From Bacilli bacterium (GTDB lineage Bacteria > Bacillota_I > Bacilli_A > RF39 > UBA660), in contig JAGAIS010000007.1 in NCBI GenBank assembly GCA_017626405.1, positions 8,280-72,279 on the forward strand: a stretch of 64,000 bases of DNA, in the 5' to 3' direction. Positions within the stretch are counted from its first letter, which is position 1; every line of letters starts with the position of its first letter. Below, piece after piece: positions 20,416 through 43,589 of the stretch. The notes beneath the pieces are model-generated. The model ran no database searches. It saw only the letters and a list, made by a program, of their open reading frames with translations, and was not told the DNA's origin. The translations under genes were made by a program, and so were the position numbers.

Positions 20416-20433
20416 TTTTACAAGGAGGGTATT

Positions 20434-21198
20434 ATGGATGTGATTATGGTTTATCTGTTTATAGCAGGATTATTCTTCGGTTCATTTTTCAATTGTATTG
20501 CAAATCGATTAAGCAAAAATGAATCAATAATTCGACCAGGATCACATTGTGAAAATTGTAAACATGAATTAGCCTGGTATGAATTAATACCAGTTTTTTC
20601 ATATCTTTTTTTAAAAGGAAAATGTAAAAAGTGCCATACTAAACTAAGTGTATGGTATCCCATTACTGAAATAATCACGGGTTTTCTATTTGCACTTTCA
20701 TATTTAAAATTTGGCTTTACTATTGAAACTATCATATCTATTACTATTGTTTCTATTCTAATAATCACATTTATTAGTGATATAACATACTATATTATTT
20801 TAGATGAAGTAATATTTATCGGTTTAATAATAATGGCGATACTAATGTATTTTAATGCTGGCATAGAGGGCGTAATAAAGTCTTTTATTGGATGTTTTTT
20901 TATTGGTGGTGTAATGATGCTTATCAAGTTAATAGGGGATAAGGCATTTAAGACAGAATCACTTGGATGGGGAGATATAAAACTAAGTTTAATAGCTGGA
21001 TTTATTTTAGGAATTCGTTTAGGAACTCTCTATATATTTTTAGGTTCCCTAATAGCATTACCATTCGGGATTGCATCATCATTTAAAAATAAATCGAGAA
21101 TAATACCTTTTGGACCTTTTCTATCAGTAAGTCTATTAGTTATATATTGGTTTAGTCCATTTTTCTATTCAATTTTAAATATTTTGTTAGGAGTATAA
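20434..21198 (+). CDS. pilD: prepilin peptidase (A24 family, PilD/ComC-like)
   Basis: N-terminal CxxC...CxxC zinc motif (CENCKHE...CKKCHT) and a polytopic membrane domain. Confidence 0.8.
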   Translation: MDVIMVYLFIAGLFFGSFFNCIANRLSKNESIIRPGSHCENCKHELAWYELIPVFSYLFLKGKCKKCHTKLSVWYPITEIITGFLFALSYLKFGFTIETIISITIVSILIITFISDITYYIILDEVIFIGLIIMAILMYFNAGIEGVIKSFIGCFFIGGVMMLIKLIGDKAFKTESLGWGDIKLSLIAGFILGIRLGTLYIFLGSLIALPFGIASSFKNKSRIIPFGPFLSVSLLVIYWFSPFFYSILNILLGV

Positions 21199-21200
21199 AT

Positions 21201-22739: not shown

Positions 22740-23915
22740 ATGATGAACAAGAGAATAATTATTACATCTTTACTATTATTAGTTTTTGTTCTTTTAAGTA
22801 TATTTTTATGCCAAAATGTAACTATTATTGAGAATAATAATAATGGCAATGACATTGATATCAAATTAGAAATAACAAAGGAAGAAACTAGTAATTCAAC
22901 ACATTCTGAAACTACTATTACTGAGATTATGAATAATTCTACTAAAACATCAACTAAAAATAATGATAGTACTACTAAAATAACTAATAAAAAGACAACT
23001 ACAACTTCAAATAATATAAAGAAAAATTTAGTAAGCTATAACGGATGGTTAAGTATTAAAAATAATACATTAGTGAATCAATATGGAGAAAAGATTCAGT
23101 TAAAGGGAATGAGTACTCACGGAATTCAATGGTTTCCTAAATATGCAAATGCTTATGTTATGAGAACATTGAGAGATGAATGGAACTCTAATTTATTTAG
23201 AATTGCTATGTATACGGAAGAAAATGGTTATATAAGTAATCCAACACTCAAAAATAAAGTAGTGGAAGTAGTAAATAATGCGATTAATCTGAATATGTAT
23301 GTAATAATTGATTGGCATATTCTAAGTGATGGAAATCCTCAAACTCATAAAAGCGAAGCTATTGCTTTCTTCAGTGAAATGAGTAGAAAATATAAAAATA
23401 ATCCTAATGTAATTTATGAAATATGTAATGAACCGAATGGAAATGTTACCTGGAATAATGATATCAAACCTTATGCCGAAGAAGTAATAGCAGCAATTAG
23501 AGCAAATTCTCCAAAATCAATTATTATTGTAGGAACTGGAACTTGGAGTCAGGATGTTGATCAAGCAGCTATGAACCCAATTAATGATTCACGTGTTATG
23601 TACGCTTTGCATTTTTATGCTGGTACTCATAAAGAATGGTTAAGAGATAGATGTTCAAATGCATTAAATAAGATACCTATCTTTGTATCTGAATGGGGAA
23701 TGAGTGATGCAAGTGGAAATGGTGGAGTTTATAAAGATGAAGCCGATAAATGGATTTCATTTATGAAAAATAATAACATATCATGGGCTAATTGGTCTCT
23801 TTGTGATAAAAACGAATCATCGGCACTTTTAAAACCGAATACTCCTTCAAATAATATAGATGACTCTTATCTATCAAAAAGTGGTATATATGTTAAACAA
23901 TATATGAAACAATAA
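22740..23915 (+). CDS. glycoside hydrolase family 5 endoglucanase (cellulase-like), N-terminally anchored with a Thr/Asn-rich linker
   Basis: GH5 catalytic motifs ICNEPNG (acid/base) and VSEWGMS (nucleophile). IIDWHIL. N-terminal TM/signal. Confidence 0.8.
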   Translation: MMNKRIIITSLLLLVFVLLSIFLCQNVTIIENNNNGNDIDIKLEITKEETSNSTHSETTITEIMNNSTKTSTKNNDSTTKITNKKTTTTSNNIKKNLVSYNGWLSIKNNTLVNQYGEKIQLKGMSTHGIQWFPKYANAYVMRTLRDEWNSNLFRIAMYTEENGYISNPTLKNKVVEVVNNAINLNMYVIIDWHILSDGNPQTHKSEAIAFFSEMSRKYKNNPNVIYEICNEPNGNVTWNNDIKPYAEEVIAAIRANSPKSIIIVGTGTWSQDVDQAAMNPINDSRVMYALHFYAGTHKEWLRDRCSNALNKIPIFVSEWGMSDASGNGGVYKDEADKWISFMKNNNISWANWSLCDKNESSALLKPNTPSNNIDDSYLSKSGIYVKQYMKQ

Positions 23916-28860: not shown

Positions 28861-29529
28861 ATGAATAACGATTTATTTTTTAAAGATTGTTTCACAGAGG
28901 TAGAAGGGGGAATAAATGCCGAGTTTAATAAAGCTACGGTAAAATGTTTTAATTCAACAAATAATGCATTTAGTATGGACTGTGATGGTAACCTAGTCGT
29001 CAATAGTATTATGACAAGAGAAGGTAATTCACAAAATATTGATATTCAAACAGTAGTTGATAAAATCTATCCAATAGGATCAATTTATATGAGTGTAAAC
29101 ACAACAAATCCAAGTACATTATTTGGTGGAACATGGGAGCAAATCAAAGATAGGTTTTTACTATGCTCAGGTGATAAATATACCAATGGATTACAAGGCG
29201 GTGAAGAGACTCATCAATTAAATATTAATGAGATTCCTAGTCATAATCATTTAGTAAATATAAATACTAGTGAAGGCGGATATCATGCTCATAATTTAAG
29301 AAGAGATATGGGAGGAGCTGAATTTGGAATAAGCGGCGGTGGTGCAACGGGTAATGCTTTACATGGTACGTGGACAAATACTAATATATGGCCTAACTCT
29401 ATTGGCGCAGCTGGTAATGGAAATCATATTCATAACGTATATGGATACACTAGTGCTAATGGAGGCAATTTAGCACATAATAATATGCCACCATACTTAA
29501 CTGTATGTGTTTGGAAAAGAGTTGCATAA
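28861..29529 (+). CDS. phage tail-collar domain protein (PF07484-like; microcystin-dependent-protein/baseplate-wedge-like)
   Basis: Motifs IYPIGSIYMS...LFGGTWEQI, GGEETHQLNINEIPSHNH and NNMPPYLTVCVWKR are the hallmark blocks of the tail-collar fold. Confidence 0.7.
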   Translation: MNNDLFFKDCFTEVEGGINAEFNKATVKCFNSTNNAFSMDCDGNLVVNSIMTREGNSQNIDIQTVVDKIYPIGSIYMSVNTTNPSTLFGGTWEQIKDRFLLCSGDKYTNGLQGGEETHQLNINEIPSHNHLVNINTSEGGYHAHNLRRDMGGAEFGISGGGATGNALHGTWTNTNIWPNSIGAAGNGNHIHNVYGYTSANGGNLAHNNMPPYLTVCVWKRVA

Positions 29530-29555: not shown

Positions 29556-32500
29556 ATGAAAGAAATAATAGAATTAAGAAAAGAAAGGGAAAAACATTAT
29601 TTAAATAATGACGGAACTGTAACTGCATATATGTATAATGAAGATATTCATTATTTAGAAAATGGTGAATATAAAGAAATCGATAATACTCTAGTAGAAG
29701 AAGATGGGTATATTACTAATAAAGCTAATAATTTTAAAATAAGACTTAATAAAAATAAATATTTAGTTAAGATAGAATTAAATGAAAAAGAATATTTGAA
29801 TATATCGTTAAGAAATGCTAATGCCGTTTCAGCTCATATTCTTAATAATGAAGTAATGTATAAAGAAATATTATCTAATATAGATATCCAATATTTAGTA
29901 CATGGGAAAACATTGAAAGAAAATATTATATTAAAAGATAAATTAAATAGTAACATTGTATTTAATATAGAAACAAATTTAGAATTAGTTATAAGTGATT
30001 CAAAAGTTCTAGCTAAAAATGGTGATAATATCATATATGTTTTTAATCCATTATTTATGATTGATGCGAAAGAACAAATAAATAATAATTGCAATTATAA
30101 ATTAACAAAATTAGAAAATGGATATGAATTAGAATTTATTCTTGATGAAAAATATTTAATTGAAGCAGAATATCCTATAGTTATAGATCCTACAGTAACT
30201 ACTGATAATTTAGAAAATGTTGAAGATATTACTTTATATTCTAGTCAACCGGATCATGCAGCTGCAAATACAAACTATTTATCAGTCGGTAGTGATGCTA
30301 ATGGTATTATGAGAACTTTATTAAAGTTTGATTTACCGAAAATAGCAACTGGGAATAATATAATTAAAGCTACTGCTTATCTAAAACATTTCGGGTCATA
30401 CATTAATGAAAACCCTAAAACTATTGGTGTGTATGAAGTAACAACTAATTGGAGTGAATCTACAGCAACATGGAATAATATGAATAATAATTATAATCCT
30501 AAAATGGAAACTTATTTAACTCCACCACAAATGGTTGATACAAATTCTTCATTTGACATAGATTTAACGAATATAGTTAAAAGATGGTATTCTGATAAAG
30601 AAAATAAAGGAATAATGTTAAAATGTTTAGATGAAAGTTATGATTCTACAATGCCATATTACTCATTTTATTCAAAAACTTATGATTATTTAAATAGTAC
30701 GACTTATCGTCCACTATTAACTATTGAATATCGTTTGCAAAATGGGCTACTAGATTATATGACTTATGAAAATGTGTCTTTTTCAATCGGCAATAGTTAT
30801 GTTAACAATTGTACCGGAAATTTTTCAAATGTAGTATCTTTGTCTGAAATATTAGACAGTACATGTTTGTTTGAAATGTCATTAACTTATAATACGCATG
30901 ATGTGATATTAAATAAGAATAATAAATTTGGGCTAGGTTTTAATATTAGTTATAATGACACTATTGAAGAAACCATAAATAAATATATGGAGAAGGAATA
31001 CAAATATACATGTTCAGATGGAACTAGTCATTATTTTTATAAATATATAAAAGAAGACGGAACCGATAGTGGGGAATACCATGATGAGGATGGTTTCTCT
31101 TTAACATTAGAAATAAAGAACGAAACTACTAAAGAATTCATTTTAAAAGACAAAAATAATAATGTATATAATTTTACAAATGGCTTTTTATCTAAAATAG
31201 AATATGCTGATAAAACTTATGTAAATATTACAAGAGATTTTGAAAATAAAATTACATCAATAAAAGATAGTAAAAATAATGAAGCAACTATCAGTTATTA
31301 TGAAAATAAAGTTATTTTTGCTAATGGAAACAAAAATATTACAATCAATATTTCTAACAATAAATTGACAAGTATAGTATGTAAAAATGGAAATCTTAGT
31401 TTTGAATATAATAGTAATTCTTTGATTTCTAAAATAATTGATACTAATGGACTTAGTATGGGTGTTGATTATTATAATATTGAACCATATAAAGTAAGTA
31501 AAATAACTGAATATGGTTTAAATAATGAAGAAGGTAAATCTAAATCTTTTGTTTATGAATTTAATTCAACAACGGTAACAGATAATCAAGACATTAAAAT
31601 GAGATATACATTTAATAATTTAGGTAATACTATTAGTACTGTTTTAATTAGTGACGATAATTCTTTAAAAAAATCTTATGGTTTTTCTAGTACATATGTA
31701 AATGAATTAAAAACACCAATAACAAATAAACCTTTAGCTTCAACTTTACCGATAAAATATGGTGAAAACCTGATTAAAAATGGTAGTTTTGAAACTGATG
31801 AAAAGAACTTCTTTACTAACTTTAGAAGTAGTGAAGATAGTTTTTCAGGAAGTTATTCAGTCAAAATAGAAAGTTATGGTTGTGCAGAGCTAGATAGAAT
31901 TCTTGAAAAAGATAAAACCTACACTTTTAGTGCATATTTTAAAAATAATGATATAATTGATATTCAAGTTTATGGTACGAGAGCAACTGGTCAAGATATA
32001 ATATACGAAGAAACTATTATGCCTAATTCTGAATTTACAAAATGCGATTTTACATTCGATGTAACTTATGGTTATTCTTGCGTAGGTTTTACAATTGACG
32101 TTAGAAATGATGGTATTGCATACATAGATGATGTGGTAATAAATGAAGGTGATGTTGCAAATAATTGCAATTTGATAGATAACTCAAATTTTGTTAAAGG
32201 TATTGATGGATGGAATGTTAGTGGAAGTATTGATGGTTCAGACGATATTGTAGCTAATCCATATGAAATTATTACTTTACCATCCAATGAAAAAGCAATC
32301 CAATTAAATAGTATTGTTAATGGTAGTGTATCGTTGTTAAAAACACTTAACATATCTGGTAAAAAAGGTGATACATTTACTTTTTCATTCTGGTATAAAA
32401 ACGAGGGAGTTCTAGATACAAGTTATAATATGGTTGGTAATTTGGTATCATTAACATTTTTTGATTCTAATTCTGAATTCGGTGAATGTATTAATAATGT

Positions 32501-35500
32501 TATTTTAAACTATCATGCTGATAATTGGCAATTTCATACAGAAACATGTATAGCTGAAAACGACTTTGATTCAATAGACATTAGAGTGTTTAGTATTTAT
32601 GAAACAAATCATTTACTTTTAACTAATTTTTCTCTTACTAGAGATTTAGGGTCTTTCTTTTATGAATACGATGAAAACGGAAATTTAATATCGACTATTT
32701 ATCCAGATAATAGTAAGATAAAAATGGCATATGATAAAAATAACCAATTACTGGGAGTCTTTGATGTTAAAGGTAATAATTACAGTTATGAATATGATAA
32801 TATAAAAACAGATAGATTATTAAAAGGAATTAGTCCGACAGGAATATCAAACGAAATAAAATATGATAGTTTTGGTAATCCTGTGAGAACTATAATAAAT
32901 AATGTTAATCCAAATGGTAATGAAATAAGTGGCGATTATTATATTCGATCAAAAGGAACAGATAAATATATTACACCTAATTTAAAAACAGGAGAGTTAT
33001 CACTAAAAAATGATACTTGTAGTCATTATTCTTTTTCAATAGTAAACCATAATGAAACTGAAACCAATACAAAAGTATATAATTTTACATCTTCTATTTT
33101 ACCAAACTATAAATTAACAAAATTAGAAGATAAAGCTATTCTTCAAAAAGATTCAACAGGCACTTATTTTGAATTAATTCAAAAAAATAATGGTTCATAT
33201 AATATTAAAGTATATAAAGAAGACTTATATCTTAAGGTAAATGAAGGTAGAATATCTTTAGCAAACCTAAAAGACACATCAGATTTTGAATTTTATTTTG
33301 AAACCACAAATTCTGATGAATTTATTGAAAATAGAGCCGAGTATACAGTTGATGGTAAACATATTACTAAAATTATAGATAGTTTAGGTAAAGAAACTAC
33401 ATATAGCATTAATAATGATACTGGATTAATAGATTATACTGTTTATCCTAATAATGAAAAATATATATATGAGTATAATGACAAAGATGAATTAATACGC
33501 TTATCTAAGGATGAAAAAAATATAAATTATACATATAGCAATCAGTTATTAAAAAGTGTGACTTCTGGAAATAAAACAGTTACATTTAATTATGATAATT
33601 TCTTAAATCCTTCTGAAATAAAAATTAATAATAAACTTTTAGTTAAAGATAATTATCAGTTTGATAAATTGACATCAAAAAATTATGGAAATGGGTCAAG
33701 TATTAAGTATTATTATGATGAATTAAATAGAATAAGTAAAGTTGAAAAAGAAGATAGAGTGTTTACATATAAATATAATAATTTAGGAACTCTAGACTCG
33801 ATAATAGATCATTCAACAAGTGGATATAATTATAGTTTAAAATTTAATTATGACTTTGCAAATAGATTATCTAATATTAAATGTAAAAATATGAGAATTG
33901 AATATGTTTATGACACATTTGGAAATATAATCCAAGAAAAAAATGCTTTAAATAATACTACTCATAATTTAGAATATAGTTTTAATCAAAATAATATATT
34001 AACCAAAATAAAGATAGATGATGATGCCATAAATTACAACTACGACAATTTAGAAAGATTAACAAGTGTAAATATAAATAATAATATAAAAACAGAATAT
34101 ACTTATAAAAAAATGGGTAAAAAATTATCTACTGTTATTAATACTATTAAAAAAGGAGAAGATCTATATCAATATTTTTATGATGAATTATACAACATTA
34201 TTAAGGTTACAAAAAATGGTAATACCAGTAAAGAATATGTTTATGACACTAATAATCAATTATTAACTGAAAATAATCATGATTTAAATATGAAGTTTAT
34301 ATATAATTATGATTCTGAAGGAAATATAACTTCAAAAAAAATCTTCAATTTAGAAGATAATACGTTAATTAAAGAGGACACATATGCTTATTCAAATGTT
34401 GAATGGGAAGACGAATTAACTAGCTTTAATAATGAAAATATATGTTATGATGACATCGGAAATCCAATAAGCATTGGAAATAAAACATTAAATTGGGAAA
34501 ATGGAAAAGAATTAAAATCGTATTGCGATGATATAAATACATTTGAATATTCATATAATGTTGCTGGTTTTAGAACAAATAAAAAGATTAATAATAAATT
34601 AATTGAATACTATTTAGATGATGATAAGGTTTTATTTGAATATAGCGATGATTATGTGTTATACTTCATGTATGATGATAATGATAATTTGATTGGATTT
34701 AAGAAAAACGACCAAACTTATTACTACAATAAAAATTATCAAAATGATATTATTGGAATTTATGATAATAATTATAATGAAGTTGTTAAGTATAACTATG
34801 ATTCATGGGGAAAATTAGTTTCTATTTTGGATGCTAATAATAAAGAAATTATAGATAAAAACAACATAGGAATGATAAATCCATTTAGATACAGAAGTTA
34901 TTATTATGATCAAGAAACAGGTTTATATTATTTAAATAGTAGATATTATAATCCAGAATGGGGAAGATTTATTAATTCTGATAAGATTGCTTTTTCGAGC
35001 AATGGATTATTTGGAATAAACTATTACTTATATGCTAATAATAATCCAATTAATTATATTGATTCGAATGGTGATTTCCCTTTTGCTATACCAGTGCTTG
35101 GCGCAGCAGAAATAGCCGCAGGGTTTGTTTTAGCTGCTACACTAATCTATGCTACTGCAAAAGCTATACAAAGTGTCGGTCCCATTTCGATTGATTTAGA
35201 TCTAAACGTAAGTACTCCTCCTAAAAAGGAAAAAAAATCAAAGAAAAAAAATGATAAAGATGGTAAAAATTGTTATATATATGGATTATATAATGGTACT
35301 AAAATTGAGTATGTTGGAAGAACATATGATTTGAAAGTTAGAGAAGCTCAGCATAAGCGAACTATTAGAAAAGACTTAGAAATGCATAAAATTCATACAA
35401 CTACATCATATGAAGATTGTCGAGCATACGAGCAATACTATATTGAAAAATATAAAACGCTGAATAGAGTGATAAAAAAATCGGAAAGAATTAACAATCA

Positions 35501-35588
35501 AAGAAACGGCGTGGCAATAGATTCTCCATTCTATAGAGATTATGTTAGACCATTGAAAACAGTTTATGGAGAAACATACGTAGGATAA
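29556..35588 (+). CDS. Rhs/YD-repeat polymorphic toxin (2010 aa) with two CBM_4_9-like modules, RHS core and a C-terminal GIY-YIG nuclease-like toxin domain; no signal peptide
   Basis: ATG 29556 follows TAGGAGG. NLIKNGSFE / NLIDNSNFVKGIDGW CBM-like motifs. Many YD repeats (YDxxGN, YxYD). RHS core end PFRYRSYYYDQETGLYYLNSRYYNPEWGRFINSD. Putative autoproteolysis region IDSNGDFPF. C-terminal CYIYGLYNGTKIEYVGRTYDLKVREAQHKR...N matches the GIY-x10-YxG...R...H...N nuclease motif. Confidence 0.85.
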   Translation: MKEIIELRKEREKHYLNNDGTVTAYMYNEDIHYLENGEYKEIDNTLVEEDGYITNKANNFKIRLNKNKYLVKIELNEKEYLNISLRNANAVSAHILNNEVMYKEILSNIDIQYLVHGKTLKENIILKDKLNSNIVFNIETNLELVISDSKVLAKNGDNIIYVFNPLFMIDAKEQINNNCNYKLTKLENGYELEFILDEKYLIEAEYPIVIDPTVTTDNLENVEDITLYSSQPDHAAANTNYLSVGSDANGIMRTLLKFDLPKIATGNNIIKATAYLKHFGSYINENPKTIGVYEVTTNWSESTATWNNMNNNYNPKMETYLTPPQMVDTNSSFDIDLTNIVKRWYSDKENKGIMLKCLDESYDSTMPYYSFYSKTYDYLNSTTYRPLLTIEYRLQNGLLDYMTYENVSFSIGNSYVNNCTGNFSNVVSLSEILDSTCLFEMSLTYNTHDVILNKNNKFGLGFNISYNDTIEETINKYMEKEYKYTCSDGTSHYFYKYIKEDGTDSGEYHDEDGFSLTLEIKNETTKEFILKDKNNNVYNFTNGFLSKIEYADKTYVNITRDFENKITSIKDSKNNEATISYYENKVIFANGNKNITINISNNKLTSIVCKNGNLSFEYNSNSLISKIIDTNGLSMGVDYYNIEPYKVSKITEYGLNNEEGKSKSFVYEFNSTTVTDNQDIKMRYTFNNLGNTISTVLISDDNSLKKSYGFSSTYVNELKTPITNKPLASTLPIKYGENLIKNGSFETDEKNFFTNFRSSEDSFSGSYSVKIESYGCAELDRILEKDKTYTFSAYFKNNDIIDIQVYGTRATGQDIIYEETIMPNSEFTKCDFTFDVTYGYSCVGFTIDVRNDGIAYIDDVVINEGDVANNCNLIDNSNFVKGIDGWNVSGSIDGSDDIVANPYEIITLPSNEKAIQLNSIVNGSVSLLKTLNISGKKGDTFTFSFWYKNEGVLDTSYNMVGNLVSLTFFDSNSEFGECINNVILNYHADNWQFHTETCIAENDFDSIDIRVFSIYETNHLLLTNFSLTRDLGSFFYEYDENGNLISTIYPDNSKIKMAYDKNNQLLGVFDVKGNNYSYEYDNIKTDRLLKGISPTGISNEIKYDSFGNPVRTIINNVNPNGNEISGDYYIRSKGTDKYITPNLKTGELSLKNDTCSHYSFSIVNHNETETNTKVYNFTSSILPNYKLTKLEDKAILQKDSTGTYFELIQKNNGSYNIKVYKEDLYLKVNEGRISLANLKDTSDFEFYFETTNSDEFIENRAEYTVDGKHITKIIDSLGKETTYSINNDTGLIDYTVYPNNEKYIYEYNDKDELIRLSKDEKNINYTYSNQLLKSVTSGNKTVTFNYDNFLNPSEIKINNKLLVKDNYQFDKLTSKNYGNGSSIKYYYDELNRISKVEKEDRVFTYKYNNLGTLDSIIDHSTSGYNYSLKFNYDFANRLSNIKCKNMRIEYVYDTFGNIIQEKNALNNTTHNLEYSFNQNNILTKIKIDDDAINYNYDNLERLTSVNINNNIKTEYTYKKMGKKLSTVINTIKKGEDLYQYFYDELYNIIKVTKNGNTSKEYVYDTNNQLLTENNHDLNMKFIYNYDSEGNITSKKIFNLEDNTLIKEDTYAYSNVEWEDELTSFNNENICYDDIGNPISIGNKTLNWENGKELKSYCDDINTFEYSYNVAGFRTNKKINNKLIEYYLDDDKVLFEYSDDYVLYFMYDDNDNLIGFKKNDQTYYYNKNYQNDIIGIYDNNYNEVVKYNYDSWGKLVSILDANNKEIIDKNNIGMINPFRYRSYYYDQETGLYYLNSRYYNPEWGRFINSDKIAFSSNGLFGINYYLYANNNPINYIDSNGDFPFAIPVLGAAEIAAGFVLAATLIYATAKAIQSVGPISIDLDLNVSTPPKKEKKSKKKNDKDGKNCYIYGLYNGTKIEYVGRTYDLKVREAQHKRTIRKDLEMHKIHTTTSYEDCRAYEQYYIEKYKTLNRVIKKSERINNQRNGVAIDSPFYRDYVRPLKTVYGETYVG

Positions 35589-35624: not shown

Positions 35625-36659
35625 ATGGAAAATAAAAAAACTTTAATGAATTGTGAACATGGAGATACATTTGCTCTAAGAATAGTTTCAAATCAAGAAT
35701 ATAAAGATAGATATTTGATTTTTATTAGGTTTGAAACTGATTTATATGAAGATGAAAAAAATTCTAATGATACAAGTAAGCTTTTTCGAGTTAAACTCAC
35801 TAAAAATAAAGAACTTCCAAAAAGTTTTGAAGAGTTAGAGGAACTACCTTATATTATTTGTAAAATAACTTGTTATGCAAAGAGATATTGGCCATTAGAT
35901 TCTGATATGGAATATAAAGAGATAGTAGAAAAATATAAAAATGTAAAATATTATCCGGACAAATACAATTATTTATATTCATATTTGCTTATCTTGAGTG
36001 ATTATAGATGCAAAAGATATGTAAAAAACTACGTCTATTTAGGGAATTTTTCTCTAACTCCACCAGAAAAAGAATACTTTCCAGTTGATATATTTGGTAA
36101 CGTTTTTCTTCTTATAGATGATTTAGAAAGATATTGTTTGAAAAGCTATCATGAGCATAATTTGAAAAAAGGAAAAGAATATTCTGAAGAAGCCGCAAAA
36201 GAAAACAACGCTTATGCGGAGGAAGAAGTGAAAATTCAAATGGAACTTCATAATAATATAAGAAAAAGAAATAACAAAATTTTAATAACTTCAATATCTG
36301 GATGGGGAACGGGACTATATGATTGTGATACAGCGTTGGATATGAGAGATGATTATCAAAGGTATTTATTAGAATATGATTATAAAGAAGTTTTAATATT
36401 AATGAAAAAGCAATATAAAGATTTTTTAAACGATAGAGAAGAAAAAACAATATTTTGGATGGTTATTGCTGATCAAGAAATAAAAAGAAAGATACTTATT
36501 CCTGAAGTAAAAGAAAAAGCGTTAAAGTCTATAGAAGATAATTTAATTATTTGGAAAGAATTAGATCCTAAGAATTATAATATTAGAAAACAAAAATTGT
36601 ATGGATTAAAAAAAAGAATCAACGATTTTAAAAATGCTAACATAAAAAGAGATTTTTGA
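35625..36659 (+). CDS. putative cognate immunity protein of the Rhs GIY-YIG toxin (344 aa, possibly two fused immunity domains)
   Basis: Immediately downstream of the toxin gene. Cytoplasmic. C-terminal GWGTGLYDCDTALDMRDDY block resembles a DUF4259-type immunity motif (from memory). Confidence 0.5.
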   Translation: MENKKTLMNCEHGDTFALRIVSNQEYKDRYLIFIRFETDLYEDEKNSNDTSKLFRVKLTKNKELPKSFEELEELPYIICKITCYAKRYWPLDSDMEYKEIVEKYKNVKYYPDKYNYLYSYLLILSDYRCKRYVKNYVYLGNFSLTPPEKEYFPVDIFGNVFLLIDDLERYCLKSYHEHNLKKGKEYSEEAAKENNAYAEEEVKIQMELHNNIRKRNNKILITSISGWGTGLYDCDTALDMRDDYQRYLLEYDYKEVLILMKKQYKDFLNDREEKTIFWMVIADQEIKRKILIPEVKEKALKSIEDNLIIWKELDPKNYNIRKQKLYGLKKRINDFKNANIKRDF

Positions 36660-36687
36660 AAACATCTCTTTTTTATATGGAGGAACT
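36646..36687 (+). terminator. hairpin + TTTTTTATATGGAGGAA junction motif, copy 1 (terminator-like; overlaps the immunity gene stop)
   Basis: AAAGAGAT-loop-ATCTCTTT then TTTTTATATGGAGGAACT. Nearly identical to the sequence at 41963-42004. Confidence 0.55.
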
Positions 36688-36804
36688 ATGAGATACGAAA
36701 TGAATAATATCAAACATTGTCCAATTAAAGGGGTTACAGCAGTCACTGTAACCTCTAAATTTGGACCAAGAACATTTTACAATAGAGTAGAAGGATGCGA
36801 TTAA
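36688..36804 (+). pseudogene. duplicated 5' fragment (38 codons) of the M23 peptidase gene found intact at 42005
   Basis: MRYEMNNIKHCPIKGVTAVTVTSKFGPRTFYNRVEGCD* vs MRYKMNNIKHCPIKGVTAVTVTSKFGPRRFYNRVEEKYESGHH. About 95% nt identity over about 130 bp, then divergence and a stop. Confidence 0.8.
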
Positions 36805-37322
36805 ATGTGAAGAAGAAATTATACTATAATATTGTATGCTATGATGTTTTAATAATAATGATATATGCAGTTGCAGGTATAGCTTTTTTCTTTGCATTTA
36901 ATACATTTATTGGTTTATTTACAATTATTCCAATTGTATTGGAATCGAAAAGATTAGTAAAAAACATTCAAAATATACCTTTAGTTATAGAAAAAACTGA
37001 AAATGGAATCATACTATATGAAAGTTCAAACGTTATTTTAACTGATAAGTCTTTGATTAGCCTAAAAAGATACATTTTTTCTATTGACTATCTTAATATT
37101 AACGATATTTATATAAGCAATGAATATTTTATATATGAACATGCACAAAACTTATGTTTACTTTCTAATGAAAATAAAAAATATAAAATTGTGTATATAT
37201 ATACTCTTTATTCACTTTTAACATATAAGCATGAAATAAAACAAATTCTAGAAATAATAAAAACATATAATAAAAATATTGAACTATATGGCAAAATAAA
37301 AGAAATATATGAAAAAGAATAG
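36795..37322 (+). CDS. hypothetical membrane protein (possible orphan immunity protein)
   Basis: 175 aa, N-terminal TM pair. Located between the M23 fragment and the orphan rhs-CT. Confidence 0.4.
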   Translation: MRLNVKKKLYYNIVCYDVLIIMIYAVAGIAFFFAFNTFIGLFTIIPIVLESKRLVKNIQNIPLVIEKTENGIILYESSNVILTDKSLISLKRYIFSIDYLNINDIYISNEYFIYEHAQNLCLLSNENKKYKIVYIYTLYSLLTYKHEIKQILEIIKTYNKNIELYGKIKEIYEKE

Positions 37323-37355
37323 TAATGGTTCAAGAAAAATGATTATAGTGGTTCA

Positions 37356-38393
37356 TTGATAGGATTTAAATATAATAATGAAATATACTATTATCAAAAG
37401 AACTATCAAAATGATATAACAGGAATCTATGATAGTAGTTATAACTTAGTGGTAATATATAAATATAATGGATGGGGTAAAGTATTATCAGTAGTAGATA
37501 ATACAACAAATAATATAGGAAGTATAAATCACTTCAGATATAGAAGTTATTATTATGATGAAGAGACAAGTTTATATTATTTAAATAGCAGATATTATAA
37601 TCCAAAATGGTGTAGATTTATAAATGCCGATGGAATAATAGGAGCAAACCAAGATATCTATAGTTATAATCTATACTTATATTCAAGCAATAATCCAATA
37701 AAAAATTATGATTCTGAAGGAAAATCTATATTTGGTGCCATAGCTATTTGTGGTATAATTGGTGCTGCATTGAATGTTGCTCCAACATTTATAGGGGATG
37801 TAGCGAAATCTATAAAGAACAAAAAGGTAACATACTCAGGATGGAAAGCATATGCATCTGGAGCTATAGGAGGCGCAGTAGGTGGCGCAGTTGGATATTT
37901 ATGTCCGGGAGCATATTTTGCACCAATAGTTGCTTCATCATTAACAACATCTGTTTCAAATTCTCTTTTTAATAAAAAAGACCTGGATAAAACAGTAGAA
38001 ACCGCTCTAAGTGATGTAATTATAGATACAACAGTTGGAAGATTAACGAAGAATATAAAGATTCCTAAAATAAACTCTGGGAAAAATAGTTTTGCATCAG
38101 TTTTTAAGTCTGGTATAACAAAACTTAATAAAAAAACTGTAAAAAATATGTCGTTAAAAGTAATTGCAAAAGGTGTAACTTCAGAAAGTGTTTCATCTTC
38201 AATTGACTCGTCAATAGCATATTATCCAAAAAAAATAGTTGAGGATCTAAAAGAACAATCAAATGTAGTAGTTAAAGATAATGACTATGTTAGTAATTGT
38301 ATTGAGTGTTCAAACCCATCACATAATTACCCAACACTAATCCATAATGATAATAGAAATGATTATTATTGTTTATGTGTTAAGTGGGATTAG
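37356..38393 (+). CDS. orphan rhs C-terminal toxin module (RHS core end + glycine-zipper/Cys-rich toxin domain), TTG start, no ATG
   Basis: LIGFKYNNEIYYYQKNYQNDITGIYD...HFRYRSYYYDEETSLYYLNSRYYNPKWCRFINADGI is homologous to residues about 1715-1830 of the main Rhs. Divergent CT with GAIGGAVGGAVG glycine zipper and C-terminal CxxC...YYCLCVKWD. Confidence 0.75.
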   Translation: MIGFKYNNEIYYYQKNYQNDITGIYDSSYNLVVIYKYNGWGKVLSVVDNTTNNIGSINHFRYRSYYYDEETSLYYLNSRYYNPKWCRFINADGIIGANQDIYSYNLYLYSSNNPIKNYDSEGKSIFGAIAICGIIGAALNVAPTFIGDVAKSIKNKKVTYSGWKAYASGAIGGAVGGAVGYLCPGAYFAPIVASSLTTSVSNSLFNKKDLDKTVETALSDVIIDTTVGRLTKNIKIPKINSGKNSFASVFKSGITKLNKKTVKNMSLKVIAKGVTSESVSSSIDSSIAYYPKKIVEDLKEQSNVVVKDNDYVSNCIECSNPSHNYPTLIHNDNRNDYYCLCVKWD

Positions 38394-38447
38394 ATTATTA
38401 TTTGACTAAAATAATTATATAAAATATAATTAAAGTGGTGATATACT

Positions 38448-39242
38448 ATGGAAAGTACAAAATTTTTATTATTTGTAGGTATTATATTTTTGTTAGGGTT
38501 TATCATTGCTTTATTAAAAAGTATATATAAAGACATTAAAAAATATAAGAGTTTTGATGTTACAAATGTGAATGCAAAAATATATTATGAGCGTCAGCAA
38601 TGCAAAGAAAAAATTATCACTATGATAATAGGGCTTATTATTGTAATCGCATTTTTTCTTTATTGTATAATTAATCTCCCTAAAAAAATAGTTGGTACCT
38701 ATGATAACAATTATATGATAGAAAAATGTCAAATTGTCGATTATATAGAAAAACCAAAAGGAGCTTATAACGAAATGAGTTGCCATAGTGATAACTTTGA
38801 TATTACCAATGATTCTTTTGTAAACAAAAGTGGCGAGGAATTTTACTACGATGATATTGGCAAATACGCTTGTATAAAGTATTACCCAGATATGTATGTT
38901 GTTGAAATTATGAAAATAAGTGACAATGAGAACCTTATATGTGATAATTTTTATTGGCCAGGAAAAAACATCAACGATAAAACAAATTATAACTATTCGG
39001 TTATAAAATGTAATATTAAAAAGAATGATAATGGAAAAATTAATTGTGTATATGGATCAAATTTAAAAATAAATAATGTGACTTTACTTAACGAAAAAGA
39101 CATTAAAGAAAAAAGTCACGTTTGTCTAAAATACTATTGGGATAATAATACTGGTAAAATACTATATGTTAATGATACTAATAAAAACTTTAACTGCGAT
39201 AGATATTTAAAAACAGAAGAAGAAAAAGATAAAAAAGAATAG
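38448..39242 (+). CDS. putative immunity protein A (two-TM membrane protein with Cys-containing domain), cassette 1
   Basis: Follows the orphan toxin. Paralogous to 40433-41251 (shared blocks GTYDNNYMI, YACIKYYP, ICLKYYW..NTGKIL). Confidence 0.55.
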   Translation: MESTKFLLFVGIIFLLGFIIALLKSIYKDIKKYKSFDVTNVNAKIYYERQQCKEKIITMIIGLIIVIAFFLYCIINLPKKIVGTYDNNYMIEKCQIVDYIEKPKGAYNEMSCHSDNFDITNDSFVNKSGEEFYYDDIGKYACIKYYPDMYVVEIMKISDNENLICDNFYWPGKNINDKTNYNYSVIKCNIKKNDNGKINCVYGSNLKINNVTLLNEKDIKEKSHVCLKYYWDNNTGKILYVNDTNKNFNCDRYLKTEEEKDKKE

Positions 39243-39253
39243 AGATAAAGTTT

Positions 39254-39832
39254 ATGAGTGAAATATTTTTAAGATTTATACAAATTGGAGCAATGTGTAT
39301 ATCAATTTCTTTTATTGCTAAGATTACATCATCTAAAAATTTTAATGATATAAAAACAAAAAATGGATATTCATCAAAAAAAATTAAAGGTTATATCTCT
39401 TCTGATTTAGATGGGTATAAAAAAATTGTATTCGTATTATCTTTAATATTCTTTTTGTTAACAATCTATTTTTTAACTATTTATTTTCTAAAAATAAATG
39501 GCTATATAGTAGTACAAGAAAGCGAAAAAAATAATTCATTAAAAATAGCGTGCTTGATGTTTATTATATTTTTATTTAATTATTATATATTCATTTATAC
39601 ATCAAAAAGCAAGATATATTTTAATGATCAAGAAATTATAAAGTACAGGTTAATTGGAAAAAAACAAGTATTAAAATTTAGCGATATAGAAAAAGTTGTT
39701 GCTACACCAACCTCTAAATTAATATTGTATTCAAAAAATAATAGATTGGTTTTTGAATTAGAAAAATCAAATAGTAATAAGTTTATTGCACTACTTGCGA
39801 AAAAAGGGATAGATATTAATTACAAAATGTAA
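39254..39832 (+). CDS. putative immunity protein B (membrane protein with bacterial-PH-like C-terminus), cassette 1
   Basis: Paralogous to 41278-41835 (IYFN..EIIKYR.IG..Q.LKFSD..KV). Confidence 0.5.
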   Translation: MSEIFLRFIQIGAMCISISFIAKITSSKNFNDIKTKNGYSSKKIKGYISSDLDGYKKIVFVLSLIFFLLTIYFLTIYFLKINGYIVVQESEKNNSLKIACLMFIIFLFNYYIFIYTSKSKIYFNDQEIIKYRLIGKKQVLKFSDIEKVVATPTSKLILYSKNNRLVFELEKSNSNKFIALLAKKGIDINYKM

Positions 39833-39848
39833 AAAAATCTTAATGCAT

Positions 39849-39884
39849 AGGAGATATATTAAAAATATATCTCCTTTATATATG
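39849..39884 (+). terminator. hairpin + TTTATATATGGTGGAA junction motif, copy 2
   Basis: AGGAGATATATT-AAA-AATATATCTCCT perfect 12-bp stem, then TTTATATATGG. Confidence 0.55.
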
Positions 39885-40393
39885 GTGGAACGACCTCGTT
39901 ATTACCATTTGGCGGTGTAATTTCTATAGCATCTTCATCTATTGCTGAGTCAGTTACTACATCACTATTTGATAAAAAAAATGTAAAAGAGACTGCCGAA
40001 TACGCTTGTAACAATTTAGTTGAAGATTTAACAACAGGATTAGTATCATCCCTTATAAAAATTCCAGGATTAAATGCAGGAAGAAATAGTTATAATGCTG
40101 TTTTTAAATCTGGAATAACTAAAATATCTAAAAATACAGCTGCAAAAATATCTTTTAAAGTAATAGCTAAAGGAGTTGCAGTAGAAAGTTTTGGTACATT
40201 TACTACTGAAATACTCAAAAAAGGTTATGAAGTTTTAACTAAAGAACTTCCTAAAAATCCACAGCAGGCTGTTAATAATGAAGATAATAATCATAATAGA
40301 ATAGAATGTTGCAATCTTACACAAAACTATCCAACATTAGCTCATAGTAATACACAAGATAATTATTATTGCTTATGTGCTAGATGGGATTAA
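39863..40393 (+). pseudogene. 5'-truncated orphan toxin C-terminal fragment (homologous to the CT of 37356-38393), no start codon
   Basis: Open frame ...GGTTSLLPFGGVISIASSSIAESVTTSLFDKK...NAGRNSYNAVFKSGITKISKNT...CCNLTQNYPTLAHSNTQDNYYCLCARWD* aligns with ...FAPIVASSLTTSVSNSLFNKK...NSGKNSFASVFKSGITKLNKKT...NYPTLIHNDNRNDYYCLCVKWD*. Confidence 0.7.
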
Positions 40394-40432
40394 TTTAGTA
40401 TCTATATAGCATTTATTGACTTATTAATATGA

Positions 40433-41251
40433 TTGGAATATACTAAAATTGGTGATAAGATGGTTGAAAACAAGTTTTTAATAGTTATAATTTTGATTGT
40501 AATACCTGCTTTTTTAATATATTTTTGTGTTTGCTTTTATAAGCTATTAAAAAAGTTAAAAAAATTGAAAAAGTCTATGGAATCAGATAAAAAAAATCTT
40601 AAGATTTATAGTGAATATCAACGACATAAATATAGCGTAATTGCTTATGTTATTTTGATGCCAATTGTTTTTATATTATTAATTTATGGTTTTTTAGATA
40701 ATTCTAAAAGGCTTACAGGTATTTATGATAATAATTATATGATTCAAAAATGTGAGATAACAGAAGTGGATGAAGGTAGGTCACGTGCTGATAAAATAAG
40801 TTGTAAGAATGAAAATTTTTATACAAAGTATACAGTTGTTGAATATGGAGATTTAGATTACGAAGATGAAAGAAAATATGCTTGTATAAAGTATTATCCA
40901 AATGTGGAAGTAGCAGAAGTATTAAGAATAGATAACAAGGACAATTTATCCTGTGAAGAATTTTATTGGTCAAAAGAAAATGATAAATCAACTAATCTTA
41001 ATTATTCAGTTTTAAAATGTGATGTAAATGCTATTAATAGCAATATAATAGATTGTTCTATTGAATCTAGTACAAAAATATCCAATATAAAAATAGAAAA
41101 TGAAAAAAATATAAAAGAAAAAGATGGTATTTGCTTAAAATACTATTGGAGTGATAATACAGGAAAAATATTGGAAGTTAATCAATCTAATGAAAACTTT
41201 AGTTGTGATAAGTATATAAAACAGGAAGAAACTAAAGATAATACGAACTAG
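40433..41251 (+). CDS. putative immunity protein A', cassette 2
   Basis: Paralog of 38448-39242. Confidence 0.55.
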   Translation: MEYTKIGDKMVENKFLIVIILIVIPAFLIYFCVCFYKLLKKLKKLKKSMESDKKNLKIYSEYQRHKYSVIAYVILMPIVFILLIYGFLDNSKRLTGIYDNNYMIQKCEITEVDEGRSRADKISCKNENFYTKYTVVEYGDLDYEDERKYACIKYYPNVEVAEVLRIDNKDNLSCEEFYWSKENDKSTNLNYSVLKCDVNAINSNIIDCSIESSTKISNIKIENEKNIKEKDGICLKYYWSDNTGKILEVNQSNENFSCDKYIKQEETKDNTN

Positions 41252-41277
41252 TTTTTAAAATAAGCAGGAGTTAATCT

Positions 41278-41835
41278 ATGGATAGAATATTTATAAGATT
41301 TTTAGAAATATCATGTAGTTGTTTTTTATGGGTTGCAACCTTTAAGTTAGGGAAATGGATACTTACAGTAAAAAGGAAGAATAATTTCTTAGTTACTAAA
41401 AATAAGAAAGATTATGTAAGCATTAGCAATGATCGTTATAAAGGAGTATTATTTGTTGTTTTAATTATTGCTCTTATACCTTCTTTATTTTTTACTATAA
41501 GTGGACTATTAGGTGTTAAAGATGTTGAAGGTAATAATGTAATATTTATAGCAATGGTATTTTGGGTAATAGTATTTTTATCTTTAATTTTATTAATTTA
41601 TTATTTTCGATGCAAAATATATTTCAATAATGATGAAATTATCAAATATCGTTTTATCGGACATAGACAAAAATTAAAGTTTTCTGATGTAAAAAAAGTC
41701 ATGGTTAAACCACTATCAGGTATAGTATTGTATTCAGAAAATGGTAAATTAAAAGTGGACTATGACAATCCTAATGCCAGTAAATTAGTCTCTATACTAG
41801 AAAAGAAAGGTTTCATTGTTAACTATAAAATATAA
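41278..41835 (+). CDS. putative immunity protein B', cassette 2
   Basis: Paralog of 39254-39832. Confidence 0.5.
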   Translation: MDRIFIRFLEISCSCFLWVATFKLGKWILTVKRKNNFLVTKNKKDYVSISNDRYKGVLFVVLIIALIPSLFFTISGLLGVKDVEGNNVIFIAMVFWVIVFLSLILLIYYFRCKIYFNNDEIIKYRFIGHRQKLKFSDVKKVMVKPLSGIVLYSENGKLKVDYDNPNASKLVSILEKKGFIVNYKI

Positions 41836-41962
41836 ATATAGTTCTTATATTAAATAATAGTATTTTTTATCTATCCAAAGCTACCTCATCAATGGTAACT
41901 TTAAATTGCTATCAAATCATAAATGCATCAAATTTTTAAAAATAACGAGTTACAAACACTCT

Positions 41963-42004
41963 AGAGATATACTATAAAATATCTCTTTTTTATATGGAGG
42001 AATT
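41963..42004 (+). terminator. hairpin + TTTTTTATATGGAGGAA junction motif, copy 3, immediately upstream of the intact M23 gene RBS
   Basis: AGAGATAT-ACTATAAA-ATATCTCT then TTTTTTATATGGAGGAATT ATG. Confidence 0.55.
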
Positions 42005-42649
42005 ATGAGATACAAAATGAATAATATTAAACACTGTCCAATTAAAGGGGTTACAGCAGTCACTGTAACCTCTAAATTTGGACCAAGAAGATTTTACAAT
42101 AGAGTAGAGGAGAAATATGAATCTGGACATCATAATGGAATTGATATAATTGGTGGAGATACCATTGTTGCTGCTTATGATGGGGTAGTTACTAAAACTA
42201 GAAATGGAGTAAAAGGATATTCAACTAAAAACTCGTGTGGTAATTATGTTACTATCGATCATGGCAATGGGTATACTACTGTTTACTATCATTTAAAACT
42301 AGATTCAATCAAAGTAAAAAAAGGGGATCGTGTTATTGCTGGTCAAGAAATAGGTTTAATGGGAAATACAGGACATTCAATATCTAAACACTTACACTAT
42401 GGAATTAAAAGAAATAATGTATGGATTAACCCGGAGCCATTTCTTAACAATACAAAAAATATTGAAAATACTAGTAATATAAAAGAAACTAATAATAAAG
42501 AAATAATATATGTCGTAAAAAAGGGTGATAATTTAACTAAAATAGCTAAAAAATATAATACTACTTGGAAAGCAATTTATAAAAAAAACAAGGAACTTAT
42601 TGGGGATAATCCCAATCTTATACTTGTTGGATGGAAATTAAAAATATAA
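42005..42649 (+). CDS. M23 family metallopeptidase with C-terminal LysM domain (peptidoglycan endopeptidase, endolysin-like)
   Basis: HxxxD (HHNGIDI) and HLH (HLHYGI) M23 motifs. C-terminal LysM (YVVKKGDNLTKIAKKYNTTWKAIYKKN). No signal peptide. Confidence 0.8.
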   Translation: MRYKMNNIKHCPIKGVTAVTVTSKFGPRRFYNRVEEKYESGHHNGIDIIGGDTIVAAYDGVVTKTRNGVKGYSTKNSCGNYVTIDHGNGYTTVYYHLKLDSIKVKKGDRVIAGQEIGLMGNTGHSISKHLHYGIKRNNVWINPEPFLNNTKNIENTSNIKETNNKEIIYVVKKGDNLTKIAKKYNTTWKAIYKKNKELIGDNPNLILVGWKLKI

Positions 42650-43017
42650 TTGATTTAAAAATAATAGCAAGTACGTTTATTTTTTTAGTTGGTGGTTTTG
42701 ATAATATGTTTATTACTCTTTTAATTTTTATTGCTCTTGATTATATAACAGGTATAATTAAAGCAATTTATCAAAAAAAATTAAATAGCAAATTGGGATT
42801 AAAAGGATTTTTAAAAAAATTAGGTTATATTTTGATAGTAATAGTTGCAAGTTTATTTGATTCAATTATAGGAGATAAACAAATGGCGATAAGAACATTA
42901 TGCATATATTTTTTTATATCTAACGAAGCCATTTCAATACTTGAAAATTGGGCAGTTATGGGCCTTCCTCTTCCGAAAAAGATATTTCAAGTGTTTGAAT
43001 CTTTAAAAGAAGAATAA
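42631..43017 (+). CDS. TcdE/phage_holin_4_1-family holin-like protein (toxin-secretion/lysis holin)
   Basis: 3-TM, 128 aa. Blocks KIIASTFIFLVGGFDNMFITLLIFIALDYITGIIKA and NEAISILENWAVMGLP are characteristic of this holin family. Overlaps the M23 gene end by 19 nt. Confidence 0.65.
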   Translation: MEIKNIIDLKIIASTFIFLVGGFDNMFITLLIFIALDYITGIIKAIYQKKLNSKLGLKGFLKKLGYILIVIVASLFDSIIGDKQMAIRTLCIYFFISNEAISILENWAVMGLPLPKKIFQVFESLKEE

Positions 43018-43021
43018 ATGT

Positions 43022-43050
43022 TGACTAAGTTGAAAAAAAGGGTTAATATA
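43022..43050 (+). promoter_or_regulatory. sigma-A-type promoter (TTGACT-17-TAATAT) for the regulator gene
   Basis: -35 at 43022-43027, -10 at 43045-43050. Confidence 0.45.
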
Positions 43051-43079
43051 TACAACCAAGTAGTTTAAGAGGTGATTAT

Positions 43080-43589
43080 ATGATTGATTCAATTTCAGCT
43101 AAGGACTTTGTTGAATTACCAGATATTATGTTAGATAAATCTAAGAATGTAAAATATATTCAACTATTAAGTGAGAATACAATAGATGACTATTACTATT
43201 CAAATTTGCGAAAAGATTTAGAAGTTATATTTAATAAGTTCAAAGATTCTAAATATCTTATACATTATCAAAATGACTATAACTTAAAATCTAATCCTTT
43301 TGAAATTAATAGAAATACCAATAGAATTAATGATAAAGTAGGAAACTATATTGAGAAAAAATTAGATCTAAGTATTTGGTCAAAAGATCTTTATAACATC
43401 TTAATCAATCTATCCGAAGAACTGACAATAAAGGAGACAATATATTTAACTTCTACATTCTTTGATAATAAAACAGAAGAAGAAATAGAAGAACTAATGG
43501 ATATTTCAAGAAAAATGTTATATAAAATAAAAAAGAGTTGTCTAGTAAAATTAAGATTAGAATTTTCAAAATATAATTTAATTGATTAG
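43080..43589 (+). CDS. small sigma-70 region-4-like / ArpU- or TcdR-like transcriptional regulator (hypothetical)
   Basis: 169 aa. C-terminal EEEIEELMDISRKMLYKIKKSCLVKLR resembles a sigma region-4 HTH. Located next to the holin. Confidence 0.35.
   Translation: MIDSISAKDFVELPDIMLDKSKNVKYIQLLSENTIDDYYYSNLRKDLEVIFNKFKDSKYLIHYQNDYNLKSNPFEINRNTNRINDKVGNYIEKKLDLSIWSKDLYNILINLSEELTIKETIYLTSTFFDNKTEEEIEELMDISRKMLYKIKKSCLVKLRLEFSKYNLID

Follow-up and report, generated by a model that had tools for sequence, protein, structure and literature searches.

What is the DNA behind a complete rhs gene for, when it holds further toxin tips, one of them truncated at its 5' end, and a pair of membrane-protein genes behind each? 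The window analysed here is a stretch of 64,000 nucleotides (nt) from an uncultured low-GC bacterium, with about 21-29% G+C across the locus; the array under study occupies positions 36660-42004 on the + strand, which also carries the main rhs gene before it and the lysis genes at its end. Orphan modules of an rhs C-terminal tip (rhs-CT) and its immunity gene are established (PMC3150448), and in Salmonella recombination between the main and the orphan rhs deploys the orphan tip (PMC3967940). The original prediction for this DNA saw in the array displaced modules available for toxin switching. We find that the array probably forms the variable 3' part of a locus for polymorphic toxins of the Rhs type, with displaced modules that are swapped by recombination; toxicity, immunity and switching within one strain are what we infer from the sequence. 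For enterobacteria there is ample documentation of such orphan modules, but few cases in a low-GC, Gram-positive-type setting are known.

The main rhs gene (29556-35588) encodes 2010 amino acids (aa) from the ATG at 29556, its longest open reading frame (ORF) starting at 29505. The protein runs from DUF7948 and DNRLRE N-terminal domains through YD repeats to an RHS-associated core and a tip (domain scores: RHS_repeat, 2.3e-15; YD_repeat_2x, 8.5e-20; DNRLRE, 2.6e-27; the core model TIGR03696, 9.6e-19 at residues 1765-1856). TIGR03696 was matched up to position 75/76, yet DP is replaced here by DS and RYYDP by RYYNP, and the core ends in NNPINYIDSNG where the enterobacterial form is PxxxxDPxGL. 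As predicted, the ORF at 37356-38393 (345 aa from a TTG, hereafter CT1) repeats this segment with another tip. The last ~125 codons of the main core are repeated in a fragment at ~37339-37712. An alignment of 167 residues pairs the orphan with residues ~1724-1890 of main Rhs (54% identity, E 4e-50), and the orphan matches TIGR03696 itself (6e-16). The homology extends to the DNA, with 71% identity between 34672-34822 and 37339-37489 and 85% between 34859-34982 and 37508-37631. Past its own motif, NNPIKNYDSEG, the CT1 tip is unrelated to the main one; it has GAIGGAVGGAVG as its glycine zipper and ends in a tail rich in Cys. At 345 aa vs 2010 aa, the N-terminal delivery region is absent from the orphan.

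A further tip, CT2 (39883-40393), is truncated at its 5' end and has ~170 codons and no start. The original prediction placed its beginning at 39863; the open frame to 40393 is as described, and its left end lies instead at ~39883-39890. It is 42% identical to the last 146 residues of the CT1 orphan (E 1e-38), which makes CT1 and CT2 diverged members of one toxin family and not a third kind of tip. The homologous membrane-gene pairs announced behind each tip are indeed there. A1 (38448-39242, 264 aa) has two N-terminal transmembrane (TM) helices and a ~190-aa domain with 8 conserved Cys, and B1 (39254-39832, 192 aa) has ~3 TM helices and a small C-terminal domain; A2 (40460-41251, 263 aa) and B2 (41278-41835, 185 aa) are their counterparts. 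Identity is 42% for the A genes (38448-39242 vs 40433-41251, E 5e-61) and 37% for the B genes (E 7e-40), and the sequence blocks said to be shared are present with slight variants (GTYDNNYMI/GIYDNNYMI, VCLKYYW/ICLKYYW). A2 probably starts at the ATG 40460 and not at the TTG 40433, which would give 272 aa; 263 aa are also called in two relatives (L018, L032).

The exchange of modules becomes visible in relatives, which are metagenome contigs from the organism of the window or a near relative of it. The arrangement of the window recurs identically in 11 assemblies and also in L018, L032 and L033, and one ENA metagenome contig (L030) is 100% identical to the window over 17.5 kb. A 203-kb scaffold, L001, is built differently. 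Its locus begins with a main Rhs that bears a full-length CT2 tip, followed by A2 and B2; next come a fragment of an M23 peptidase gene, a 149-aa ORF (P149), orphan CT1, A1 and B1; then another M23 fragment, P149, an orphan CT3 and a minus-strand membrane protein; and last an orphan whose tip is GIY-like, the gene for a 341-aa protein, a core scrap of 133 nt, the M23 gene and a holin gene. Window 39883-42108 is 99.46% identical over 2.2 kb to the tip of the L001 main gene with A2-B2 and the M23 fragment, so that the CT2 remnant corresponds at this identity to the 3' end of the L001 main rhs gene. Window 36659-39890 is 91.3% identical to the first L001 orphan module, and the main tip of the window shares 50% aa identity with the last L001 orphan tip. 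Hence the module that is headless here is mounted on the main Rhs there, and a homologue of the GIY-like pair that is mounted here is orphaned there, as expected of displaced modules.

Other relatives extend this series. In L017 and L019, B1 is joined directly to an intact M23 gene and the CT2-A2-B2 module is absent; L017 also carries an orphan with an Ntox44 tip (1.8e-12), split into two ORFs, and retains A1-B1 without any CT1. In L031, L034 and L035 a third kind of main tip and two other genes precede the same arm of M23 fragment, 175-aa ORF and core, and this one arm thus stands behind three different main cassettes. The search for alternative tips on the main rhs of relatives, proposed with the original prediction, was therefore positive (L001; L031, L034, L035), and the downstream genes are conserved as toxin-linked sets whose modules occupy different positions, with the linkage of tip and putative immunity genes kept in L001, L002, L018, L030 and L032. 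Genes upstream of rhs, and rhs itself over its first ~185 nt, keep 90-97% identity from strain to strain. Past window position 29741 (L001 1718, L031 2754) the remainder of the main gene has 65-75% or no detectable DNA similarity, indicating that the whole shell-coding region, not only the tip, is replaced between strains. At L001 17328-17460, before an M23 gene whose 5' end is unlike that of the window, the 133-nt scrap of orphan-type core is 95% identical to window 37409-37541; this site is a further junction left by cassette turnover.

Two elements are absent from the original prediction. A direct repeat of 132 nt (36662-36793 and 41979-42110; 94.7% identity, longest exact run 55 nt) brackets the array; in it a hairpin tail and a ribosome-binding site are followed by the initial 35 codons of the M23 gene. 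Copy 2 is the genuine 5' end of the intact M23 peptidase gene (42005-42649; endolysin-like, M23 with a LysM domain at 5.8e-24), which forms the right boundary of the array. Copy 1, directly behind the gene that follows the main rhs, is a truncated pseudo-start with a 38-codon ORF (36688-36804) made of 35 M23 codons, two junction codons and a stop, and its truncation point is the same in L001 (twice), L017 and L031. At 36793/36794 it is fused to the other new element, P175 (36795-37322), a 175-aa ORF with a hydrophobic N-terminal stretch at about residues 9-51, by eye two adjacent TM helices, followed by a soluble domain. The build of P175 is that of the small membrane proteins found behind tips of the CT1/CT2 family elsewhere, and it is probably an orphan immunity-type gene within the conserved left arm. 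It is 99.6% identical in nucleotides to its L001 counterpart, in which a nonsense change leaves the 149 aa of P149. The junction between M23 fragment and P175 is the same everywhere it occurs, which implies a single origin; an exact search of JGI metagenomes for it gave 0 matches, and a scan of genome contigs with the M23 protein returned distant M23 peptidases of at most 47% identity and no relative of the locus. Inside both repeat copies (36732-36753 and 42049-42070) lies a perfect 9-bp inverted repeat, GGTTACAG CAGT CACTGTAACC, which the scan flagged as terminator-like for the minus strand; it may mark a hotspot of recombination, act as a regulatory hairpin or be a product of chance. Many public short-read assemblies (L016, L020-L025) break within or just upstream of M23, with contigs starting there, which fits assembly collapse at a repeated 5' segment with variable upstream content.

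Traces of recombination are also found within the modules. The left end of CT2 lies in a junction region (39849-39890) that contains a terminator-like hairpin and a scrap of the M23 ribosome-binding site, joined to the middle of CT2 at ~39883-39890. The junction TATATGGTGGAACGACC is intermediate between TATATGGAGGAAC, the M23 ribosome-binding site as found after B1 in L019, and GTTGGTGGAGCGACC of L001 CT2. It is a microhomology join between the Shine-Dalgarno GGAGGA and the glycine-zipper Gly-Gly codons GGTGGA. The remnant arose either by a ~1.4-kb deletion in an orphan CT2 module or by import of a fragment whose donor resembled L001, in which case the right crossover fell within the M23 repeat. 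The CT1 orphan is a mosaic: 37314-37630 and 37779 onward are 97-100% like the L001 orphan CT1, and the interval 37631-37778, covering the end of the core and the first tip helix, agrees at ~100% with the CT2 allele that the main gene of L001 carries and is unlike L001 CT1; it is a gene-conversion patch of ~150 nt. The orphan cores of L001 are mutually 88-91% identical, with exact runs of 123-175 nt.

The FKKND tract just upstream of the TTG (37329-37343) had been taken for the recombination scar. It is probably a 15-20 nt scrap of another rhs core at the junction; it is also common to all related strains and hence marks an old junction, not a recent event. It is offset by 36 nt from the FKYNN of the orphan itself and meets the orphan core at an ATGAT microhomology. 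A chance origin was considered, given that the FKKND of the main gene aligns opposite FKYNN of the orphan, and was overturned by the count in six frames of the window (two occurrences, at 37329 and in main Rhs at 34698, vs 0.06 expected) and by the three nucleotides at which the copies differ, every one a third-codon position.

Tip and A gene also diverge together. A comparison of the window with L001 gives 98-100% identity for the arms and 96.7% nucleotide identity for B1, with a synonymous divergence (dS) of 0.13 and a ratio of nonsynonymous to synonymous divergence (dN/dS) of 0.10. The CT1 tip (83.9%, dN 0.16, dS 0.25) and A1 (85.1%, dN 0.12, dS 0.42, dN/dS 0.29) form one diverged block with zero indels or stops, from which it follows that tip and A travel and vary together. 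Such co-divergence would be expected for a toxin and the immunity protein that determines specificity. We accordingly propose A as the putative specificity-determining immunity protein and B as its conserved second membrane partner.

What the tips might do is suggested by their wider family. A word-based search gave only 8 relatives, and a profile search over 1.84 billion representatives gave 89 matches at E <= 1e-30; the best 150 matches (all E < 2e-26) reach far beyond where the core ends and cover tip sequence. Many of these occupy the C-terminus of proteins of 1500-2200 residues, for example a 2160-aa Rhs in NCBI assembly GCA_031549195.1. The family order is a hydrophobic helix, a GxWxFSSWxTY loop, a glycine zipper GAAVGGAIGG, more helices and GRNSxxxVFKSGxTK; the zipper of CT1 presents the extended (G/A/S)xxxGxxxG motif. 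No Pfam family was matched by the tips apart from Gly-zipper models in two members, and a profile of the tip alone found nothing among PDB sequences. An AlphaFold model from 46 sequences is helical with a C-terminal hairpin (pLDDT 78), and fold searches with it returned no significant structural neighbour. A link to mosquito SGS1, with its buried putative transmembrane helices (PMC9935623), was dropped: the core-end profile had matched 80 residues beyond the core, and the tip-only profile found nothing. The gene after the tip encodes a small 2-TM protein in 5/5 contexts examined. From these sequence features and the gene neighbourhood, we propose that CT1 and CT2 are membrane-inserting toxins.

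Two further features of the tips deserve mention. CT1 and CT2 end in a lineage-specific Cys-rich tail, CIECSNPSHNYPTLIHNDNRNDYYCLCVKWD (38280-38393 and 40280-40393), which is modelled as a beta-hairpin and is absent from most of the family; together with the eight-Cys ectodomain predicted for A it may form a contact surface. All tips of this locus family, be they GIY-like, CT1, CT2, CT3 or Ntox44, open right behind the core motif with a hydrophobic helix rich in Gly and Ala (window 35070-35170 and 37720-37800; L001 13560-13620 and 15760-15860; L017 2700-2790), which may be a common membrane-entry or shell-packing segment rather than part of the toxin.

The A-B pairs appear equipped for expression on their own. 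A promoter-like TTGACT-17-TATAAT (38402-38430, 11/12 matches) lies between the CT1 stop and the A1 start; it is kept upstream of A2 as TTGACT-17-TATACT (40416-40444) and also in L001. A TGGTGAT ribosome-binding site is likewise retained in both tip-A spacers, between paralogous modules that are ~60% identical overall. These conserved spacer sites fit a predicted expression of immunity independent of the toxin.

Based on the above data, we propose the following course of events. The main gene would encode a YD-repeat shell that ends in the conserved core motif and bears the toxic tip, and behind it the array would hold the orphan immunity-type P175, an intact but undeliverable CT1 with A1/B1, and the decapitated CT2 with A2/B2. 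The left homology arm would be the ~300-380 nt of the rhs 3' core, and the right arm the terminator, the ribosome-binding site and the first 35 M23 codons. Crossovers in these arms, either inside one chromosome or with the DNA of relatives, insert, duplicate, delete and convert modules, as the comparison of strains shows; occasional microhomology joins, as at 39883-39890, truncate them. CT1 and CT2 would be glycine-zipper toxins that insert in the membrane, A an allele-specific 2-TM protector, probably with its Cys-rich domain facing outward, and B a conserved helper. With the A-B pairs on their own promoter, the cell would stay immune to neighbours that use those tips, and the orphan tip would be silent or harmless since it has neither shell nor N-terminal delivery domains.

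Several results weigh against this scheme. Main and orphan cores of this strain share 69.8% identity with a longest exact run of 19 nt, so that fusion of the main gene to CT1 by homologous recombination should be rare here; the 132-nt M23 repeat is a better substrate and could loop out the whole array, and the truncated CT2 tip cannot be redeployed. The dN/dS of 0.65 in the CT1 tip indicates relaxed constraint. A, B, P175, the 344-aa product of the gene behind the main rhs, and the genes downstream of tips at distant loci match nothing in Pfam, NCBIfam or PHROGs. The promoter scan as a whole found 152 sites vs 144 expected from shuffles, which is no enrichment, and the promoter-like call consequently rests on conservation. 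The metagenomic origin of the relatives, lastly, leaves strain relationships and the direction of events unfixed. One may thus ask whether the array is inert wreckage, a decaying residue of duplications and replacements with no function and no realistic redeployment. The distance between the cores, the decapitation of CT2, the nonsense change in the L001 copy of P175, the ratio in the CT1 tip and the Ntox44 orphan broken in two in L017 would all suit such decay. Yet CT1, A1, B1, A2 and B2 are intact in all strains seen, with zero indels over 2.5 kb at 15% divergence; dN/dS is 0.29 in A1 and 0.10 in B1, the promoter-like and ribosome-binding sequences are kept between ~60%-identical paralogues, the CT2 module sits at 99.5% identity on the main gene of L001, and the conversion patch is recent. 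We regard wreckage as unlikely.

The role given to A and B can be questioned separately. They might be accessory factors of the toxin, for export, maturation or membrane insertion, or just one of them might protect; neither belongs to a characterised family, B hardly varies while the tip does, and the one or two small membrane proteins that follow distant tips are unrelated to A/B. Membrane immunity proteins are, on the other hand, the rule for channel-forming effectors. The retention of A1-B1 without CT1 in L017 and of A2-B2 behind a dead tip in the window fits immunity, as does the co-divergence of A with the tip, and a pair of membrane proteins protects against the Staphylococcus aureus toxin EsxX (PMC12744356); an accessory role is in our judgement improbable. 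The orphan might also act by itself, with CT1 translated from its own TTG and working inside the producer with A/B like a toxin-antitoxin system. Its 345-aa ORF is complete and gene-called in several assemblies, and an orphan Rhs of Salmonella is reported to act much like a type II toxin-antitoxin module (PMC7043789). Against this, only a weak ribosome-binding sequence precedes the TTG, the scan found no promoter-like site standing out upstream of it and one before A1, and the ORF begins inside the rhs core at a junction common to all strains. We consider autonomous action very improbable.

How the Rhs protein would leave the cell is a further question. The first 115 residues contain no hydrophobic segment and no signal peptide is seen, and directly downstream of the array this signal-less cargo adjoins the M23 peptidoglycan hydrolase and a holin (Phage_holin_4_1, 42631-43017, 3.3e-37) whose gene overlaps the end of the M23 gene. 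In Yersinia entomophaga a holin/endolysin set (type X secretion system) releases Rhs-containing Tc toxins (PMC10847048), and by analogy the adjacency suggests holin/endolysin-dependent release of Rhs; at three distant loci (L026, L029, L037) it does not recur. It is possible, if rather doubtful, that the whole block from the tail-fibre-like gene upstream of rhs to a sigma-like gene past the holin is a self-contained, phage-derived weapon, with release of Rhs through holin and M23, the endolysin 5' end co-opted as the downstream arm, and CT1 and CT2 as founders of a new and widespread family of pore-forming glycine-zipper tips neutralised outside the cell by the 2-TM Cys-rich protein. The interval from the rhs core to the lysis genes would in that case be the place where complete tip-immunity cassettes are exchanged. 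An intact prophage was rejected as an explanation: the phage-like genes are the tail-fibre-tip gene, the holin and the M23 hydrolase only, and pilus, GH5 and acyltransferase genes lie upstream.

Returning to the reading of displaced, recombining modules, its closest precedent is Salmonella Typhimurium LT2 (Koskiniemi et al. 2014, PMC3967940), where, as here, a fragment with a second copy of the 3' core, a different tip and an immunity gene of its own stands behind a full-length rhs, and where the orphan fragment likewise lacks delivery signals. Unlike LT2, the present host has low G+C (~26%) and is presumably Gram-positive, the N-termini are of the DNRLRE/DUF7948 kind and no type VI secretion system context is present; several modules are stacked and a second, downstream homology arm exists. 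Core identity is also much lower here (70%), and exchange is known here between strains only. The cdiA-CT/cdiI and rhs-CT/rhsI modules of Poole et al. 2011 (PMC3150448) resemble the array in their tandem 5'-truncated tips with a stretch before the motif, followed by immunity genes. Their motif is PxxxxDPxGL, as against the variant NNPI(N/K)xxDSxG, and each tip has one soluble immunity gene as against two membrane-protein genes here; also unlike them, the modules described here close with a recurring segment made up of a terminator, a ribosome-binding site and the 5' part of a neighbouring lysis gene.

For the membrane pair, the nearest parallel is EsxX of S. aureus, a glycine-zipper, membrane-depolarising toxin against which the membrane pair ExiCD protects from outside the cell, and ExiCD is also found as orphan immunity genes without a toxin (PMC12744356). 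EsxX/ExiCD and TelE (Alcock et al. 2025, PMC12744356) would work much like the array, with a C-terminal glycine-zipper toxin domain in a Bacillota-type organism and protection by a membrane pair. Delivery differs (LXG and a type VII secretion system for EsxX, an Rhs shell at this locus), six TM helices are present in ExiC and ExiD (DUF5079/DUF5080) where A has two and B about three, and no soluble ExiAB-like pair is seen at the present locus. With Y. entomophaga the locus shares a large YD-repeat toxin without signal peptide beside a holin and a peptidoglycan hydrolase; here, unlike there, the link consists of gene adjacency alone in a Gram-positive setting, the hydrolase is an M23/LysM protein, and the M23 5' end doubles as a recombination arm. 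Particular to the present locus are its Gram-positive-type host, a second arm that stems from a lysis gene, the sets of two membrane proteins and the uncharacterised tip family.

The known concept of weapon swapping is thereby extended, not altered. Public metagenome assemblies hold a natural series of at least five arrangements in which exchange, duplication, conversion and truncation can be followed at defined junctions. The locus further draws attention to an Rhs tip family that has no annotation and numbers at least 150 representative clusters, and to a candidate two-protein membrane immunity, and the adjacent holin and endolysin hint at an exit route for signal-less Rhs proteins.

Some features of the surroundings remain to be described. 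The tip of the main Rhs consists of a hydrophobic helix and a GIY-YIG-like domain in which the motifs YIYGLY...YVGRT...R..QH...E...N are discernible by eye; against PF01541 it scores 18.9 bits (E 0.0019), under the gathering threshold of 22.6 bits. The gene behind it (35625-36659) encodes a soluble protein of 344 aa, 55% identical to the 341-aa product behind the homologous orphan tip in L001, and is presumed to be the immunity partner of the main tip. Word-based homologue searches with A1 and B1 found same-species clusters only (4 clusters for A1), and B2 (25.2 bits) and B1 (16.7 bits) show a mere resemblance to DUF6560 (PF20197; threshold 27.8 bits). Upstream of the main rhs lies the gene for a Gp10_C tail-fibre-tip-like protein (28861-29529), and farther upstream (18844-23915) are genes for a type IV pilus-type platform protein (T2SSF), a prepilin peptidase, a DUF2207 membrane protein and a GH5 cellulase, which are unrelated to the array. 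Past the holin, within 42005-43589, a 169-aa protein has weak similarity to sigma-70 region 4 (2e-4).

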